Below are positions 19,443 to 27,583 of a stretch of DNA of 61,736 bases, piece by piece. The notes beneath the pieces are model-generated. The model searched no databases. It worked only from the letters and a program-made list of their open reading frames with translations, and was not told the DNA's origin. The translations under genes and the position numbers were made by a program. The first letter of the stretch is position 1. Every line of letters starts with the position of its first letter. The DNA comes from Jacunavirus JC01 (lineage: Duplodnaviria; Heunggongvirae; Uroviricota; Caudoviricetes; Casjensviridae), in the IMG/VR virus record IMGVR_UViG_2974716774_000001, positions 1 through 61,736 of that record; one strand, written 5' to 3'.

Positions 19443-20585
19443 ATGCCTAACTATCAACCGAATTATGTGGTCGGCCGCGGTAGCCTGTATTTCAACAAGT
19501 TTAAGAAAAACTCGAATACCCCGGAAACCGGCGAACTGTATTTCGGCAACACGCCGGAGTTCACCATTACCTCTGACTCAGAAACGCTTGACCACTACTC
19601 TTCGGAGCAGGGTATGCGTAACCTCGATGCGCGCGTGATGCTGGAATACACCCCGGGTGGCAGCTTCACCTGTGATGAAATCAACGCGGATAACCTGGCG
19701 CTGCATTTCCTCGGTGAAAACACCAATATCACCCAGCTGCAGATGACAGACCGCAAAGAGATCATCCCGGTACTGAAGCGTGCTCGCTACTATCAGCTGG
19801 GCATTGATGACGTCACCCCGAGCGGCGTGCGTAACATCAACAACCTGCAGATCGTGGTGGCCAGCGTCGATTCGTCCATCTCTCTGGGCGCAGGCGACGT
19901 GACCAGCATCCCCGGCGCTACCGTGCTTCCGGCGGACAACTACGAAGTGGATCTGGCCAACGGCCGCATCTACATCGAGCCGGACGCCTCGGCTGTCGGC
20001 GCGGAAGGTATGCAGGCGGCGGTGCAGTACGACGTTGACCCGCAGGTGCGAAATATGGTCATCGGCAAAGCGGACATGATTTATGGCTCGCTGCGCTTCA
20101 TCTCCGACAACCCGGTCGGCGGGAACAAGGATTACTTCTTCCCGAAAGTGGCGCTGACGCCGGATGGCGATTATGCTCTCAAAGGTGACGACTGGCAGGT
20201 GATGAGCTTCACCTTCAGCGCGATGAAGCTGAACAGCCGGACGGCGTACATGTACATCGACGTGCGCAGTGGCACCGAGTCTGCGACTGAAGGTACCACC
20301 CGTACCATCACCGCTACCCCGGCGGCCACCAGCTCTACGGTGGGCACTGCAGTCAACGTGACGATTACGGTTCGCGATGGCAGCAACAACCTGGTGCAGA
20401 ACGAAGCCGTTACCCTGACCGCTAACAGCGGCTCAACGGTGACACCGGCCAGCGGCAGCACCAACGCCTCCGGCCAGCTGGTTGTGCAGCTGAACCGCGC
20501 TACGGCGGGCACGGGTACGGTGACGGCTACGCTTGACAGCGGCAAGTCAGTGACCTCGGCTCAGGTGACTTTCGCCGCGGCTTAA
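19443..20585 (+). CDS. Major tail protein with C-terminal Ig-like (Big_2-type) domain
   Basis: 380-aa ORF with RBS GGAGGG; C-terminal about 90 aa is Thr/Ser/Val-rich beta-strand-like (TITVRDGSNNLVQNEAVTLTANSG...) typical of Ig-like decorations; followed by a strong terminator. Confidence 0.7.
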   Translation: MPNYQPNYVVGRGSLYFNKFKKNSNTPETGELYFGNTPEFTITSDSETLDHYSSEQGMRNLDARVMLEYTPGGSFTCDEINADNLALHFLGENTNITQLQMTDRKEIIPVLKRARYYQLGIDDVTPSGVRNINNLQIVVASVDSSISLGAGDVTSIPGATVLPADNYEVDLANGRIYIEPDASAVGAEGMQAAVQYDVDPQVRNMVIGKADMIYGSLRFISDNPVGGNKDYFFPKVALTPDGDYALKGDDWQVMSFTFSAMKLNSRTAYMYIDVRSGTESATEGTTRTITATPAATSSTVGTAVNVTITVRDGSNNLVQNEAVTLTANSGSTVTPASGSTNASGQLVVQLNRATAGTGTVTATLDSGKSVTSAQVTFAAA

Positions 20586-20687: not shown

Positions 20688-21143
20688 ATGTCATTAGCAG
20701 ATTTTCAACCTGAAACCCGTACCGTTAAAGTCAAGAACGTCACCTTCGAAGTCCGCGGCCTTTCCTTTGCCGACATCTCCAGCCTTATCCGCACGCACAT
20801 GGATGACCTCGAAGCGGTCTTCACCATGTACGAGCGCGAGGCGCAGGGGCTTAACTTCGGCAACTTGGCGATGGCCAGACTGGCCACTGCTCTCATCTCC
20901 GATGCGCCGGGCCTCGTTGCCCACATCATCGCGCTGGCCGCCGACTCTCCGGAGTTCGTCGACAAAGCCGCACGCCTTCCCGCCTTCACGCAGCTTGATG
21001 CACTGAAGAAAATCGGAGCGATGACCTTCGAAGAGGTCGGCGGTGTAAAAAAGCTGCTGGAGATGATCGTCGAGCTGGTGGAAAACCTTCAGCCAGAAAA
21101 AAGCGAGCAGCCGAAGCGGTCGTCTCCGTCCGGGAAAAAATAA
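20688..21143 (+). CDS. Tail assembly chaperone (gpG-like)
   Basis: 151-aa ORF directly upstream of the tape measure gene with RBS AGGAG; ends at GGG AAA AAA TAA. Confidence 0.6.
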   Translation: MSLADFQPETRTVKVKNVTFEVRGLSFADISSLIRTHMDDLEAVFTMYEREAQGLNFGNLAMARLATALISDAPGLVAHIIALAADSPEFVDKAARLPAFTQLDALKKIGAMTFEEVGGVKKLLEMIVELVENLQPEKSEQPKRSSPSGKK

Positions 21144-21382
21144 TCAACTACTACGATGGAATGCGGGAGCAGGTCAGTCTGCTCCTTTCCGAAGGCCACC
21201 CACACGCCCGGCGCTACCCACTGGCGACGCTGTGGCTGGAAGCACAAATCGTAATGCGCCGTCATAACCAAAGATTTGTCACCGAATCCCTGCTGATGCA
21301 GGGCTGTATCGGAACGATAATGAATGGGAAGAAAGGCTCTAAGCATTATCAGGACATGATAAGGAAACTTAGCGATGGCTAA
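20688..21382 (+). CDS. Tail assembly chaperone frameshift product (gpGT-like, predicted -1 frameshift near 21134-21140)
   Basis: The -1 frame is open from the slippery run GGGAAAAAA through 21382 and ends just inside the tape measure gene. Confidence 0.45.
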
Positions 21383-24300
21383 CAATTCATCCCGTGACGT
21401 CGAGCTTAATATCCGGGCGAGAGACTACAGCCAGAAAACGCTGAAGCAGGTAACAGATGCCATCAGCGACATGGCCAAAGCCCAGGATGCCCAGCGCCTT
21501 GCTGCCGAGCGCGGCGAAGTCACCGCCAAAGAGCTGGAGGCGAGCTACCGCAAGCTGGAGAGCGCCGGTCAGGCGCTGCTTAAGCTCAACTCACTGGTTG
21601 AAGTGTATAAGCGACAGACGGCCGCGCTGGAAGCCCAGCAGGTCAAGCTGGAGCAGACCGTCGAGAAGCAGAAGGAGCTGCAGGCCGCGTATGACGGCGC
21701 CGAGAAAGTAACGAAGCGTCAGGAGGCAGCACTGGCCCGCGCTAACCGCGCCGTGGAGAAAGCCACGCAAGGCCTGAGCGACCAGCAGGCTCGCGTATCC
21801 CGTGCGGCCGCGGAGCTGGACAAATACGGCATCTCCACCAACGAGCTGGCCCGGAGCCAGCAGACCATCGTGGCCAACGTCGGGCGCGTTAACGCGGTGC
21901 TGGAGCGCCAGGACAACATTATCCAGCGCGTGCCTGAGGCAGTGAGGAAATACAATCAGGCGTGGGATGAGGCGATCGCGACAAACAACCGTCTCGATAC
22001 GGCGCGCCTGGAAAAATATAACCGCGCGTGGGATGAGGCGATCGCCATCAACAACCGCATGGACGCCGCCGCCAAGCTGACGCAGCAGCGCCTCGAAGAG
22101 CAGGCTTACGCGATCGATAAGGTTATCACAGGCCTGCGGCGCCAGGCGGATGAGGCCATCGCAGCATCGCGCGGCTACCAGACTCTCGGCCGTGTGGTGG
22201 CAGCGACGAACCTGAGCACCGGCGGCCGTCTGGCCACTGACCTGCAGGCCATCGTTACGCCAGCGCAGGCGGCGCGTTCTACTCTGGGCGGGCTGGAGAA
22301 ACAGGTCGACTCGCTCTCCCGGGAAATTGAGGCGGGTGGGAAAAACATCGAGGGCGCAGCCCAGAAGCTGAAAGACCTGCAGGCCGCGCAGCAGGCGGCA
22401 ATCGGCATGGCCCGTCTTATTGACCAGTTCCGGGCACAGACGACTGCCGTGCGTACCGCGCGTGCGGAGTTTCAGGCAGCACGCGCCGACGTCATGCAGC
22501 TGGCCGAGCGTATGCGTGCCGCACAGGCTGACACCGAGGGTCTGGGTCGTGAGATGCAGGCGGCGCAGCAGCGCCTTAATGCCGCGACGCAGGCACTGCG
22601 CACTACCGGCGCGGCAGCGCGACAGACGCAGGCGGCGCTACGGTCAGCCGGTGTCGACACCCGAACGCTGGGCACTGAATCCGATCGCCTGCGCACTACC
22701 GCACAGCGTACGACGACGGCCGTCGATGGGCTGGCGGGCGCAGTTCGTCGCAGCGGGGAGGCAGCACGCGACGGCGCGAAGGCATTCTCCTTCTTCACGG
22801 ACAGCGGCCGTACCACGCTGTCGGCCACACAGCGCCTCAAAGGTGAGATTCTGGCGCTGACCACGACGTACATTGGCTTCCAGGGCGCTATCAACCTGGC
22901 GGGCGGCGCGGTGGATGCGTTCAAGACCCGGCAGCAGGCGCTCATCAAGATCTCGCAGGTCGTCGGCAAAGACCAGAACCGTCTCAACGCCGAGTGGGAG
23001 TACATGGAGGGTCTGGCCAACCGGCTCGGTGTCAAGATTGAGGACGTGGCCCAGGGATACACCTCATTCGCCGTGGCGGCCAAAGCGACAGGCCTCAGCC
23101 TGCAGCAGACGAAGTACGTGTTCGAGAGCATCACCAAAACCGGCCGCGTGTTCCACCTGTCGGCCGATGACATGCAGGGCGTGTTCCGCGCCATGCAGCA
23201 GATGCTGTCGAAGGGTCAGGTCTATGCGGAAGAGCTTACCGGCCAGCTGGGCGAACGTCTCCCGGCGGCGGTGGCGTTGTTCGCTAAAGGCATGGACATG
23301 ACCACGCAGGAGCTGCTGAAGGCGATGCAGAACGGCGAGATCAGCTCGCAGGCCGTCATCAACTTCGCACGCGCCAACGCCAAAGCTATCGACGCCGAAA
23401 TCGAGACCGCCAGCAAAGGCGTGGATGCGATGGAAGCGCGCGCCCAGAATGCCATGTTTAACTTCAAACTGGCGATGGCGGACTCCGGCTTCATCGAGGC
23501 GTACGTCAGGATGCTGGAGCGCCTGACCGAGTTCCTGAACAGCCCTGACGGTGCAGAGGCCGCGAAGAAATTCGGTGATGCTTTCTCCAAAGCCGCAGAC
23601 GCGATCATCTGGTGCGTTGACAACATCGACATTCTGATTAACGCGCTGACCGTTTTCGCAGGCCTGAAGGCGGTGCAGTATGTCGCGGGTCTCGTGCAGG
23701 GGCTGCGCAAGCTGGCGCCGCTGTTCGCGCAGATCGGCAAAATCGGCGATGGCATCCTGTCGTTCTTCAGCAAATTCGCAGCGCGCCTGGCGACAGGCAC
23801 CGGCGCAGTGAAAGGCCTGGGCATCGCGCTTGGCGGGCTGGTGCGCGCCATACCGTACGTGGGCTGGGCGCTGCTGGCCTATGACATCGGGGCCATCTTC
23901 TATGAGCAGTCGCAGACATTCGCCAAAGCGGTCGACGAGGTTATCCGCGACTTCAAGAACCTCGGCAATCAGCTTATCGCACTGGCGGAGACACCGGTGG
24001 CAGCGCTGCGGGATCTGGCGTATGCCATCGTGCGGCCTATCACCACGCTCTTCTCTACCAGCATCACGGCTATCGCGAACTGGATAGCGGATGTCGTCAG
24101 CCTGATCCCGGGCGTTGGTGAAGACCTGGCCAAGTGGACGCGAGACGTGGCGAAGGAGCTGACCAAGCAAAACCGTGACATGTTCCAGAACGTGTCCGGC
24201 ATCTGGGATGACGTCAATGACAAATGGGCCAAGATGAATGACGACATCACCAAAAAATACAGCCAGACGATGAGCGAGGTCGTTCGTCAGACGCTGGCCG

Positions 24301-25883
24301 CTAAAGCCAAAATGCTGCAGACGGATCTCAGCGCGGCGATGGGCTTCCAGTTCACCGAAGACCCGGGCGGCGGGATCAGCAAGCGTGACCGTGAGGTGCA
24401 GGCGCTGACCAAAGAGTTTGAAAAACTGCAGAAGTCCGCCGACAAAGCGAAGAAGTCGGCCAAAGAAGCACTGATGCGTAAAAACCTGCCGGGCCGCCTG
24501 GCGCTGGTCGACGAAGAGTTCGCACCGCAGCTCGCCAGGGCGAAAGCGCTCGGCGGCGATGAAGGGGCCAAGCTGACCAAACAGCTGCAGGGCATCATCG
24601 CTATCCGTAAGCAGGCCGAGACCGACGAGTACAACGCGTCACAGCGTAGTTCGTCCGGCATCGACAAGCGAGCACGCGCGTTGGAGAACCTGACGCAGAA
24701 ATACAAAGAGCTGAAAGACTCTATCCAGCTCAAAGAGGTGCAGCAGGATCCGACGTCTTCGCTGGCTGACCGCACCGCGGCTGCTGTGCAGAAAGCTAAC
24801 ACCGAGATGGATAAATATATCCGTCAGGCTAATAAGCTCGGTGGCGCGGAAGGCAAAGCACTCTCCGACCAGTTTACTGCCCTGAAGACGGTTAACGAGC
24901 AGTACATCACCCAGAAGATGCAGCTGGAGGAAGTGGAGCGCCTGGAGAACAAGGTCAACAATCTGCTGGCCATCCGTAAGTCGCGGATTGAGGAAATCAA
25001 CGCCAAACGTGAAGCGGGCGTTATCAACGAAGACCAGCAGGTCGCAGGCGTCAATCAGGTCAATCAGGAAACGCAGGGGCCGCTTAATGCCGCTCTGGGC
25101 CAGCTGCAAAGCGCGGGGTCACAGGCGCAAAGCATCATGGGGCCGGAGGCATGGGCGCAGCTCCAGGCGAACATCGCTGCGGCAAAAGCCAGTATGCTTG
25201 ACCTGACAGGTACTTTCACCACGATGGACTCTACCGTCGTTAAAGGTGTTCTCGGCGGCTTTGAAGCGGCGATGGACTCTATCTATGACAGCATGGTACA
25301 GCTCATCCGCGGCACGCAGTCTCTCAGTGACGCGTTTTCGAACCTGGGCGTGGCAGTGGCCAAGTTCTTCGCCGACTTCCTGCGTCAAATCGCAATGGCC
25401 ATCCTTCAGCAGATGGTGCTCAATGCGCTTGCGGGAATGGGAGGCGGTATCGGCGCGGCGGCGCAGGCAGCGGGCGGCGTGGCCAAAGGTGCGGCCAAGC
25501 ACAACGGTGGTATCATCGGCAGCTCGACGACCGGAGGTATGCAGACACGTCAGATGCAGACGTCGTGGTTTGCCAACGCTCCGCGCTTCCACACCGGCGG
25601 GCTGCCCGGCCTGAAGTCAGACGAGGTACCAGCCATTCTGCAGAAAGGCGAGCAGGTGCTGTCCAAAGATGACCCGAACAACATCCTGAACCAGCAGCGG
25701 TCTACGTCAGGCGGTGCTGCGTCGCCGCAGATGAATCGCTTCGTGCTGGTGGACGACCGCACCAAGATCCCCGAGGCCATGAACAGCCAGGAAGGGGAGC
25801 AGGTATTCGTGCAGTTCCTTCAGCGCAACGCCGCGACAGTCCGGCAGATTGCGTCACGTAAAACGAGCGGGAGAAACGGATAA
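21375..25883 (+). CDS. Tail tape measure protein
   Basis: 1502-aa ORF, N-terminal coiled-coil-like Ala/Gln/Arg-rich region, central hydrophobic Gly/Ala-rich region; located after the chaperone pair. Confidence 0.85.
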   Translation: MANNSSRDVELNIRARDYSQKTLKQVTDAISDMAKAQDAQRLAAERGEVTAKELEASYRKLESAGQALLKLNSLVEVYKRQTAALEAQQVKLEQTVEKQKELQAAYDGAEKVTKRQEAALARANRAVEKATQGLSDQQARVSRAAAELDKYGISTNELARSQQTIVANVGRVNAVLERQDNIIQRVPEAVRKYNQAWDEAIATNNRLDTARLEKYNRAWDEAIAINNRMDAAAKLTQQRLEEQAYAIDKVITGLRRQADEAIAASRGYQTLGRVVAATNLSTGGRLATDLQAIVTPAQAARSTLGGLEKQVDSLSREIEAGGKNIEGAAQKLKDLQAAQQAAIGMARLIDQFRAQTTAVRTARAEFQAARADVMQLAERMRAAQADTEGLGREMQAAQQRLNAATQALRTTGAAARQTQAALRSAGVDTRTLGTESDRLRTTAQRTTTAVDGLAGAVRRSGEAARDGAKAFSFFTDSGRTTLSATQRLKGEILALTTTYIGFQGAINLAGGAVDAFKTRQQALIKISQVVGKDQNRLNAEWEYMEGLANRLGVKIEDVAQGYTSFAVAAKATGLSLQQTKYVFESITKTGRVFHLSADDMQGVFRAMQQMLSKGQVYAEELTGQLGERLPAAVALFAKGMDMTTQELLKAMQNGEISSQAVINFARANAKAIDAEIETASKGVDAMEARAQNAMFNFKLAMADSGFIEAYVRMLERLTEFLNSPDGAEAAKKFGDAFSKAADAIIWCVDNIDILINALTVFAGLKAVQYVAGLVQGLRKLAPLFAQIGKIGDGILSFFSKFAARLATGTGAVKGLGIALGGLVRAIPYVGWALLAYDIGAIFYEQSQTFAKAVDEVIRDFKNLGNQLIALAETPVAALRDLAYAIVRPITTLFSTSITAIANWIADVVSLIPGVGEDLAKWTRDVAKELTKQNRDMFQNVSGIWDDVNDKWAKMNDDITKKYSQTMSEVVRQTLAAKAKMLQTDLSAAMGFQFTEDPGGGISKRDREVQALTKEFEKLQKSADKAKKSAKEALMRKNLPGRLALVDEEFAPQLARAKALGGDEGAKLTKQLQGIIAIRKQAETDEYNASQRSSSGIDKRARALENLTQKYKELKDSIQLKEVQQDPTSSLADRTAAAVQKANTEMDKYIRQANKLGGAEGKALSDQFTALKTVNEQYITQKMQLEEVERLENKVNNLLAIRKSRIEEINAKREAGVINEDQQVAGVNQVNQETQGPLNAALGQLQSAGSQAQSIMGPEAWAQLQANIAAAKASMLDLTGTFTTMDSTVVKGVLGGFEAAMDSIYDSMVQLIRGTQSLSDAFSNLGVAVAKFFADFLRQIAMAILQQMVLNALAGMGGGIGAAAQAAGGVAKGAAKHNGGIIGSSTTGGMQTRQMQTSWFANAPRFHTGGLPGLKSDEVPAILQKGEQVLSKDDPNNILNQQRSTSGGAASPQMNRFVLVDDRTKIPEAMNSQEGEQVFVQFLQRNAATVRQIASRKTSGRNG

Positions 25884-27583
25884 TGGCACTGACAGGCCTC
25901 CGTCCACTCAAAGAGACCAACACGCTGGGCACCTCCGCTCAGCGCTTTGGACTACTCAATGGGGCGTACGATATTTTCGTGCAGGACACCTACACCGGCG
26001 GCGACGCTGACCAGAACTACTACGCGGCCAAGTGGCTGCGTCTGGCGGCGGGCACCTACCAGCTGCGCTTCATCGGCGATGACTCGGCGACGTTCAGCCT
26101 GAACGGGATGCAGGTGGCGTCCGGCACCTACGACGGCAGCTGGATCACGCCGGTCGTCGAGACGTTCACGGTTGGCGCGGATGACGTATACCGCTGGGAT
26201 ATCGTGAACCACAACGGCCCGGCCAATTCGCCCGCGTTCGTCTCATACGAGCTGAGCAAGGACGGCGTGATTATTGAGGTGTCTCGCGCGCAGGACTTCA
26301 TCGGCGACCTCGTACCGATCCCGGACAAAGCGCTGGGCCCGAAGCCGCCGTACAATAACGATATCCGTCTGAGCTACCCGATCTTCCTGCCGAAGCCAAA
26401 CTGGAAAGACGGCGTTACCGAGCGACTGGAGTGGAAGACCGATGTGCTGGTGTCCGAGACCGGCGCCGAGCAGCGCCGCAAGCTGCGCCAGTACCCCCGC
26501 CGGTCGCTGGAGGCGAGCTTCACCGGGCAGGGCAATTACGCCGCGCTGATCGACAGCTACCTGTCCGGCGTCGGCTACTCCAACGGCCTGGTGCCGCTGT
26601 GGTGGGATGAGACGCCGATTAGTGGCGACGTGGTGGCGGGCGCGGTAGACATCTTCGGCGACTTCAAGTGGCGCGAGTTTAACGCGAACGACGTCGTGAT
26701 TATCCGCAGGCCGGGCCGCGTCACCGACTATGAGCTGAACATTGTGGCCGAGCGCAGCGACACCAAACTGGTGCTGCTCTACGGCCTGCAGGAAGACACG
26801 CGTGCTGGCACCATCACGCCGGTGCGGGTGGCACAAATCCGCGAGCAGCTCTCCGGCACGATCCTGACCGACCGCGTTAAGCAGTACCAGCTGCGCTTCT
26901 TCACGGTGGAAGCCGCGGACTACCCGGCAGAGTGGACTTTCCCGATTTACGAGCGCACCAACCTGCCGATCCTGACGTGGGAGCCGAACTACCGCGAGTC
27001 GCTCGACCTCAACTACGACCGGCAGATCTACACCTGGGATAACGAGGTGGGCAACCCTTACACCGTTGACCCGGGCGGCACGCTGCAGCTGGGCGAGAAA
27101 ATGGGCTTCACGGTGTTCGGACGCGCGGAAATGCACGGCCTCAAGCGCACGCTGTATAAACTGTCTGGCCGGTGGCGCGAGATTCATGTGCCGTCCGGCA
27201 GCGACGAGTTTACGCTGGCCCGCGACATCAATGACAGCGCTGGCGCACTCGTGGTCTACCGCAGTGGCTATAACCAGTACCGGCTCAGCCAGCAGGCCAC
27301 CCGGCGCGACATTCTCGTCGAGCTGTATGACGGGCGCGTCCTGCCTAACACCATCATCTCCAGCCGCGTCGTGGGGGATGAAGAGTGGCTATTTCTGCAG
27401 GAGACGCTGCCGCCTGTTCCCAAAGACCAGGTGCGTCGTATAAGCTACATGCCGAGAAGCCGACTCGATATCGACGCCATCGAAATCAGCAGGCTTACCG
27501 ACGCGGACGGCGCGGCCCAGGTGGCACTGACTTTTAAAGCCATCACTGAAAGAAGGAACGCGCCGCCGATAACTTTCCAGTGA
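25883..27583 (+). CDS. Tail tip protein (distal tail / tip assembly, putative)
   Basis: 566-aa ORF immediately after the tape measure gene (TAATG overlap). Confidence 0.5.
   Translation: MALTGLRPLKETNTLGTSAQRFGLLNGAYDIFVQDTYTGGDADQNYYAAKWLRLAAGTYQLRFIGDDSATFSLNGMQVASGTYDGSWITPVVETFTVGADDVYRWDIVNHNGPANSPAFVSYELSKDGVIIEVSRAQDFIGDLVPIPDKALGPKPPYNNDIRLSYPIFLPKPNWKDGVTERLEWKTDVLVSETGAEQRRKLRQYPRRSLEASFTGQGNYAALIDSYLSGVGYSNGLVPLWWDETPISGDVVAGAVDIFGDFKWREFNANDVVIIRRPGRVTDYELNIVAERSDTKLVLLYGLQEDTRAGTITPVRVAQIREQLSGTILTDRVKQYQLRFFTVEAADYPAEWTFPIYERTNLPILTWEPNYRESLDLNYDRQIYTWDNEVGNPYTVDPGGTLQLGEKMGFTVFGRAEMHGLKRTLYKLSGRWREIHVPSGSDEFTLARDINDSAGALVVYRSGYNQYRLSQQATRRDILVELYDGRVLPNTIISSRVVGDEEWLFLQETLPPVPKDQVRRISYMPRSRLDIDAIEISRLTDADGAAQVALTFKAITERRNAPPITFQ

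Follow-up and report, generated by a model that had tools for sequence, protein, structure and literature searches.

A diverged 22-codon tandem repeat in the tape measure gene of Cronobacter phage JC01 and its probable origin in an old in-frame duplication

How does a tape measure gene come to carry two similar 66-bp units in a row, and what would the extra unit do to the tail? The tape measure protein (TMP) is the ruler that sets the extent of tail tube protein polymerisation, and a change in its length bears on the length of the particle. The window analysed here is the complete genome (61,736 bp) of Cronobacter phage JC01, a Chi-like siphovirus, and the elements in question are the TMP gene and two adjacent units within its N-terminal part:

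21375..25883, plus strand: TMP gene, an open reading frame (ORF) of 1502 aa with matches to Pfam TMP_3, phrog_2335 and 8vjh_Q
21948..22013, plus strand: repeat unit 1, aa 192-213, KYNQAWDEAIATNNRLDTARLE
22014..22079, plus strand: repeat unit 2, aa 214-235, KYNRAWDEAIAINNRMDAAAKL

We propose, with a probability of roughly 0.85, that the two units go back to an old in-frame tandem duplication of 22 codons in the TMP of the ancestor of a small Chi-like group, that the block carrying them was later exchanged between lineages, and that the ruler became longer by about 3.3 nm.

The two units abut each other and are in frame with the ORF at 21375-25883, as the first of them begins 573 nt (21948-21375), or 191 codons, after the ORF start. 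An earlier note, made from the sequence alone, had reported an in-frame duplication of two adjacent 66-bp units at 21948-22079 inside the tape measure gene, and its coordinates and both peptides proved exact. The units share 45/66 nt and 15/22 aa, differing at 21/66 positions, and this likeness is uneven: the identity is 84% in the first 44 nt and falls to about 8/22, near random, in the last 22 nt. Accordingly, both units display the conserved core KYNxAWDEAIAxNNR, whereas the last seven residues of unit 1 are changed. The same note had named, as the outcome that would speak against the repeat, a formal alignment with no significant internal match. BLASTP of aa 1-213 against aa 214-1502 aligned aa 192-210 with aa 214-232 at 15/19 identical residues, and the match is significant (E = 2e-7 with compositional adjustment). 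On the self-comparison diagonal at offset 22 the score is 95, compared to 45±4.5 (maximum 67) with the whole protein shuffled and 24.7±4.7 (maximum 46) when only the 110 aa around the repeat were. Tandem Repeats Finder at a minimum score of 30 did not report the 66-nt repeat, which we treat as a sensitivity limit for two diverged copies of long period and not as counter-evidence. Among the 15 residues conserved between the units, nine use the same codon and six a synonymously different one, indicating that the copies are old.

Could the likeness have arisen with no duplication at all, either because a motif needed for function, such as a site of contact with a chaperone or with the tube, appeared twice by convergence, or because a periodic coiled-coil pattern mimics a repeat? 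We consider this very improbable. The region is indeed helical and of biased composition, there is little signal at synonymous sites, and a weaker QADEAIA motif conserved across the family lies 39 aa downstream. However, 15/19 identity at E = 2e-7 survives compositional adjustment, the units are exactly tandem and in frame, and the five relatives without a second unit that were aligned pairwise differ by exactly one 22-aa gap. Moreover, W197 and W219, which are 22 aa apart, are the only tryptophans within the first 540 aa and the only such pair. Composition alone does not produce such matches either, as exemplified by a second diagonal at offset 274. This diagonal (aa 30-191 against aa 304-465; 21462-22769) was considered as a large ancient duplication, since its raw BLOSUM sum equalled that of the 22-aa repeat; it was rejected with E = 0.84 after compositional adjustment and an empty self-BLASTP, and probably reflects coiled-coil composition. 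The palindrome GCGATCGC, present in both units, was likewise dismissed as a special or enriched site: it occurs six times in the window against 4.0±1.8 expected, and merely encodes A-I-A.

The downstream motif is a possible older, degenerate third copy of the core:

22143..22163, plus strand: possible older degenerate third core copy, aa 257-263, QADEAIA compared to QAWDEAIA in the units

A repeat search showed that 22148-22162 matches both 21965-21979 and 22031-22045 at 14/15 nt. The corresponding diagonal at offset 39 (RAWDEAIA/RQADEAIA) scores 24, which is not significant on its own. This segment, 39 aa after unit 2, is conserved family-wide including Chi, unlike the units themselves. It could be the source of the W-containing unit.

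To place the event in time, we compared JC01 with 120 listed TMP homologues and with four loci from a scan of IMG/VR. Both units are present in three of the 120 homologues, namely JC01 itself and two metagenomic sequences, P0002 (88% identity, 1502 aa) and P0003 (72%, 1500 aa); the IMG/VR scan added a fourth carrier, locus L005, together with three single-copy loci. In eleven close relatives (P0005-P0009, P0011-P0015; 1474-1481 aa) the unit occurs just once, as KYNAAWDEAIATNN.., for example KYNAAWDEAIATNNRLDAEAKQ. Salmonella phage BAU.Micro_SLP-22, with a TMP of 1477 aa, is a further example of the single-copy state. When aligned pairwise to JC01, each of the single-unit proteins P0007, P0009 and P0014 is interrupted at aa ~204-215 by a single clean gap of 22 aa, as are P0017 and P0027, two more distant relatives without the W motif. 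The statement of the earlier note that the duplication adds about 22 residues is thus literally right for these five proteins. Further out, relatives of about 1475-1487 aa match single-unit TMPs in length but have an unrelated A/K/D/Q-rich sequence at the site. The number of W-units among the 120 homologues is therefore variable (0, 1 or 2), and no three-copy form was seen among them.

This distribution, and the agreement between carriers, also bears on the integrity of the JC01 record. Short tandem repeats are prone to mis-assembly, and an assembly or sequencing artefact would be the most trivial explanation of the second unit. However, the copies differ at 21/66 positions, and the two-unit arrangement with its unit-specific substitutions recurs in L001, L002 and L005, three assemblies obtained independently from other samples, which refutes an artefact and leaves it with a negligible probability.

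Comparison of the units across carriers revealed that each unit resembles its counterpart in another genome more than its neighbour in the same genome. Unit 1 shares 57-61/66 nt with unit 1 of other genomes (57/66 for JC01 against P0002 and P0003) and unit 2 shares 53-55/66 nt with unit 2, whereas the two units within one genome share only 42-46/66 nt. Unit-specific features are common to all carriers: position 4 is Q in unit 1 and R in unit 2, and the units end in LDTAR[LI]E and MDAA.., respectively. The higher similarity between orthologous than between paralogous units argues for one old duplication that predates the divergence of these phages, with no homogenisation since. By these comparisons the duplication appears to be older than the divergence of its carriers, which are now at roughly 72% identity.

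The same figures leave some room for a different origin, in which the second unit was imported by unequal homologous recombination between diverged, co-infecting Chi-like phages, and the two copies differed from the start. The paralogous identity in JC01 (45/66) is not above that of either unit to the single-copy orthologues (45-52/66), and the tail of unit 2 resembles those of single-copy relatives (MDAEARQ, LDAEAKQ), whereas that of unit 1 (DTARLE) resembles neither. The gene is, in addition, demonstrably mosaic, as described below. An old duplication within one genome nevertheless predicts the same pattern of identities, and no single-copy donor with a tail of the unit-1 type was found among the 120 homologues and the four IMG/VR loci. 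We regard an import as rather unlikely, and retain an old duplication as the origin of the two units.

Phylogenetic analysis showed that the repeat block and the rest of the gene do not tell the same story. In neighbour-joining trees with 200 bootstrap replicates, calculated from the protein without aa 185-250, the two-copy P0003 grouped with the single-copy P0006-P0012 in 195/200 replicates, whereas 184/200 placed JC01 and P0002 together with P0004 and P0010, two proteins devoid of any W-unit. A different grouping, of JC01, P0002 and P0003, emerged from the segment aa 501-1000 (117/200). We further counted, in bins of 150 nt, the sites of P0003 that are informative in the sense that JC01 agrees with P0002, P0007 agrees with P0009, and the two pairs differ. 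Within aa 151-300, all 15 of 15 informative sites of P0003 side with the two-copy pair JC01/P0002. The adjoining bins are mixed (7:11 and 4:8), and in three C-terminal bins within aa 1251-1500 P0003 sides with the single-copy pair at 26:2, 29:0 and 14:0. The informative sites and the conflict between trees together indicate that a block of roughly 450 bp around the duplication has a history of its own, distinct from that of the remaining gene. Most simply, these sequences would be explained by a single duplication and a later exchange of the block among Chi-like phages by homologous recombination, the alternative being repeated loss of a unit. Since the ruler gene is recombinationally mosaic, TMP-based phage typing can mislead in the Chi-like group.

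Repeated loss is at the heart of an opposite polarity, according to which the two-unit state is ancestral and the single-unit TMPs derive from it, perhaps on several occasions, by unequal crossing-over that deleted one of the repeats. It draws on the same trees: with P0003 nested in the single-copy clade (195/200) and JC01/P0002 placed with the motif-less P0004/P0010 (184/200) outside the repeat block, a strictly vertical model needs several losses. Deletion between tandem repeats would also leave a clean single unit, as is seen. Yet the shift from 15:0 within aa 151-300 to 29:0 in the opposite sense in the C-terminal part is a signature of recombination, which accommodates a single gain. Furthermore, the distant relatives of ~1475-1487 aa and the Chi-type TMPs lack the extra 22 aa, with the exception of P0016, making a gain of 22 aa the parsimonious direction. 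At position 4, the single-copy units have A where unit 1 has Q and unit 2 has R. Even with the polarity reversed, the two units would still stem from a duplication. Overall, we judge the reversed order of events unlikely and prefer a single gain of the second unit with later exchange of the block.

The duplication sits in a stretch at which Chi-like TMPs differ in other ways as well:

21930..22103, plus strand: spot variable in length and sequence that holds both units, JC01 aa ~186-243, from alignments and pairwise gap lists

Most of the length variation of Chi-like TMPs falls at this spot, which is occupied by several unrelated types of sequence. Most relatives of 1474-1487 aa are 22 aa shorter than JC01 there, and Chi-type TMPs (1431 aa) lack 55 aa, the phmmer alignment to 8vjh_Q resuming where JC01 residue 244 corresponds to Chi residue 187. 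At the same Chi position (~185-189), P0049 has 29 additional aa and P0070 has 271. The exceptional P0016 (1499 aa) has about 22 extra aa at JC01 aa ~194-235, made up of an unrelated A/Q-rich sequence, and its own internal repeat score does not rise above shuffles (37 compared to 32.7±5.9). For the very long homologues P0070 (1781 aa) and P0042 (1636 aa), Pfam scans for inserted domains gave TMP_3 only. A strict quantisation of the insertions and deletions in steps of 11 aa was considered and holds only partly, with differences of 22 and 55 aa, but also of 19, 29 and 53 aa. The difference between JC01 and Chi, 55 aa × 1.5 Å = 82.5 Å, is close to twice the 41.2-Å rise of a tube ring (82.4 Å), a coincidence that we note without claiming it. 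The analysis thus traces the variation in ruler length among Chi-like phages to one short stretch. A further-reaching idea is that aa ~186-243 may be a dedicated length-tuning cassette, in which helical segments are gained, lost or swapped by recombination in steps of about 11 residues, with net differences matching whole tube rings; the 22-aa duplication would then be one such step, perhaps favoured because it alters the reach along or off the flagellum or suits a particular host envelope. We consider this idea doubtful.

To ask what the second unit might do to the ruler, we predicted the structure of aa 120-330 by AlphaFold2 with 22 homologues:

21837..22211, plus strand: predicted single continuous α-helix spanning both units, aa 155-279 (model residues 36-160), AlphaFold2

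The units lie in the most confident part of the model, with mean pLDDT values of 78-89 over blocks of ten residues. Hydrophobic residues recur with a heptad-like period (3.5) in aa 1-190 and aa 300-470, compared to a period of about 3.6 in aa 185-260. The heptad periodicity is strong in the flanks within TMP aa 1-470 (21375-22785), and an insertion of 22 residues exceeds three heptads by one residue. The local helix packing of the repeat region may differ from that of the flanks.

The length of the whole protein is in keeping with that of the tail. The published length of the non-contractile JC01 tail is 219±7 nm, and 1502 aa at 0.15 nm per residue give 225 nm, by arithmetic on the literature value. 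For the tube we rely on solved structures of homologues:

19443..20585, plus strand: major tail tube protein with a C-terminal Ig-like (Big_1) domain; phrog_807, Pfam Big_1

This protein matches the Chi tube protein (8vhx_G) and YSD1_22 (6xgr_A) at E≈1e-138, and because the tube proteins are such close homologues, the ring rise of the solved Chi/YSD1 tubes, given as 41.2 Å for the homologous YSD1 tube, is applicable to JC01. On a helical model the duplication would add 22 × 1.5 Å = 33 Å (about 3.3 nm) to the ruler, equivalent to 0.8 ring. The tail would gain at most one extra hexameric ring, about 1.5% of its ~220 nm. The earlier note had linked the duplication to tail length, a consequence that would follow soundly from the ruler principle. 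A comparison of published negative-stain tail lengths, in line with the check that the note had named, is unable to resolve it, as the error of the JC01 value (±7 nm) is twice the predicted 3.3 nm. The predicted effect is small, and the knowledge of how tail length is determined remains unchanged.

Altogether, the data are consistent with the following course of events. A 66-bp segment of the N-terminal α-helical part of the ruler, comprising 22 codons or two 11-residue steps, would have been duplicated in tandem and in frame, probably by replication slippage or unequal recombination, in the ancestor of a small group of Chi-like phages. Both copies have been kept and have diverged without homogenisation, as the comparison of orthologous and paralogous units shows. 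Subsequently, homologous recombination may have moved the duplication block between lineages. The TMP probably runs stretched out along the tail lumen, its end halting the growth of the tube, and 22 additional helical residues would then lengthen the ruler. Several points weigh against this course of events. Over their last 22 nt the two units hardly resemble each other (about 8/22), so the event at the origin was perhaps not an exact duplication of 66 bp. With nine same and six different codons, synonymous change is close to saturated, and the DNA therefore contributes little that the protein similarity does not already give. In a mosaic gene, the patchy distribution might also result from repeated loss of a single unit by unequal crossing-over in several lineages. 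Finally, the predicted gain of 3.3 nm falls short both of one ring and of the error of the published measurement, and the duplication could leave the particle unaffected.

That the gene encodes a tape measure protein, as the earlier note held, is well supported. Its product matches Pfam TMP_3 (PF20155) at 94.3 bits over a cut-off of 41, and phrog_2335, annotated as tail length tape measure protein, from end to end (aa 5-1493; 1192 bits). The sequence is identical to the one deposited at NCBI as "putative tape measure protein [Cronobacter phage JC01]", and it is a full-length homologue (E=0) of the Chi virion tail chain 8vjh_Q, annotated as "Tape measure" (1431 aa). The gene directly follows those of the tail assembly chaperones G and G-T:

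20688..21143, plus strand: tail assembly chaperone G, Pfam Pre_tape_measure at 186 bits
21161..21382, plus strand: T-frame ORF of 73 aa, reached by frameshifting at GGGAAAAAA (21132-21140)

The frame of G ends with TCC GGG AAA AAA TAA, its stop lying at 21141-21143, and the minus-one frame is open from there through the T ORF. The family phrog_11703 matches G with its N-terminal part (positions 1-129) and T with its C-terminal part (positions 160-232). The stop codon of the T ORF overlaps the start codon of the TMP gene (ATG at 21375). The resulting order, tail tube protein (19443-20585), G (20688-21143), T frame (21161-21382), TMP (21375-25883) and a tail assembly protein (25883-27583), is the canonical siphophage tail module.

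One of the closest precedents is the survey of Belcaid, Bergeron and Poisson (2011; PMC3271669), who described TMPs composed of a variable number of 11-aa units with W/F markers and with duplications in multiples of 33 nt. Aromatic markers of this kind have been proposed in the literature as anchors for the tail assembly chaperones. Similar to those TMPs, the JC01 protein has undergone, in our reading, an in-frame tandem duplication of 22 aa (66 nt), a multiple of 11 aa (33 nt), with a tryptophan at the same place in each copy and relatives that differ by whole blocks. In both cases the orthologous segments are more similar than the paralogous ones, and duplication and loss are ambiguous (PMC3271669). 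However, JC01 differs from the arrays in having only two copies and no long array. The patterns [FW]-x10-[FW]-x10-[FW] and 11-11-18 of that work have no match anywhere in the JC01 TMP, and since the [FW]-x10 patterns are absent the protein is not a member of the array subset. Moreover, the periodicity of the JC01 repeat region is about 3.6 with flanks at 3.5, not clearly 11/3, and the insertions and deletions at the variable spot are not all multiples of 11 (19, 29 and 53 aa).

The ruler principle itself is reviewed in PMC3271669 and was experimentally shown for TP901-1 (Mahony et al. 2016; PMC5099701). In phage lambda, deletions and duplications in gpH shorten and lengthen the tail, respectively (Katsura and Hendrix 1984, as cited in PMC3271669). 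In TP901-1, removal of repeats shortens the tail, whereas replacing one repeat with alanines has little impact, and the periodicity outweighs the side chains (PMC5099701). The expectation for JC01 is of the same kind, in that adding or removing helical TMP residues scales the tail and changes to N-terminal repeats are tolerated in those systems. By contrast, the lambda and TP901-1 variants are laboratory mutants with measured tails and changes of tens to hundreds of residues, whereas the JC01 change is natural, fixed, 22 aa long and known from sequence. A further close comparison is with the TMPs of Chi (8vjh chain Q, 1431 aa) and YSD1, which share with JC01 the gene neighbourhood and a homologous tube protein, and in the case of Chi the full-length homology of the TMP, although all 55 aa of the stretch with the two units (JC01 aa ~186-243) are missing from the Chi protein. 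Seen against these systems, the JC01 duplication is an ordinary, already described mode of TMP length evolution, to which the present comparison adds the direction and age of the change, a site of length variation within Chi-like TMPs, and the mosaic history of the block. It provides a clean natural example of a change in TMP length, a fixed 22-codon duplication with single-copy relatives for comparison.

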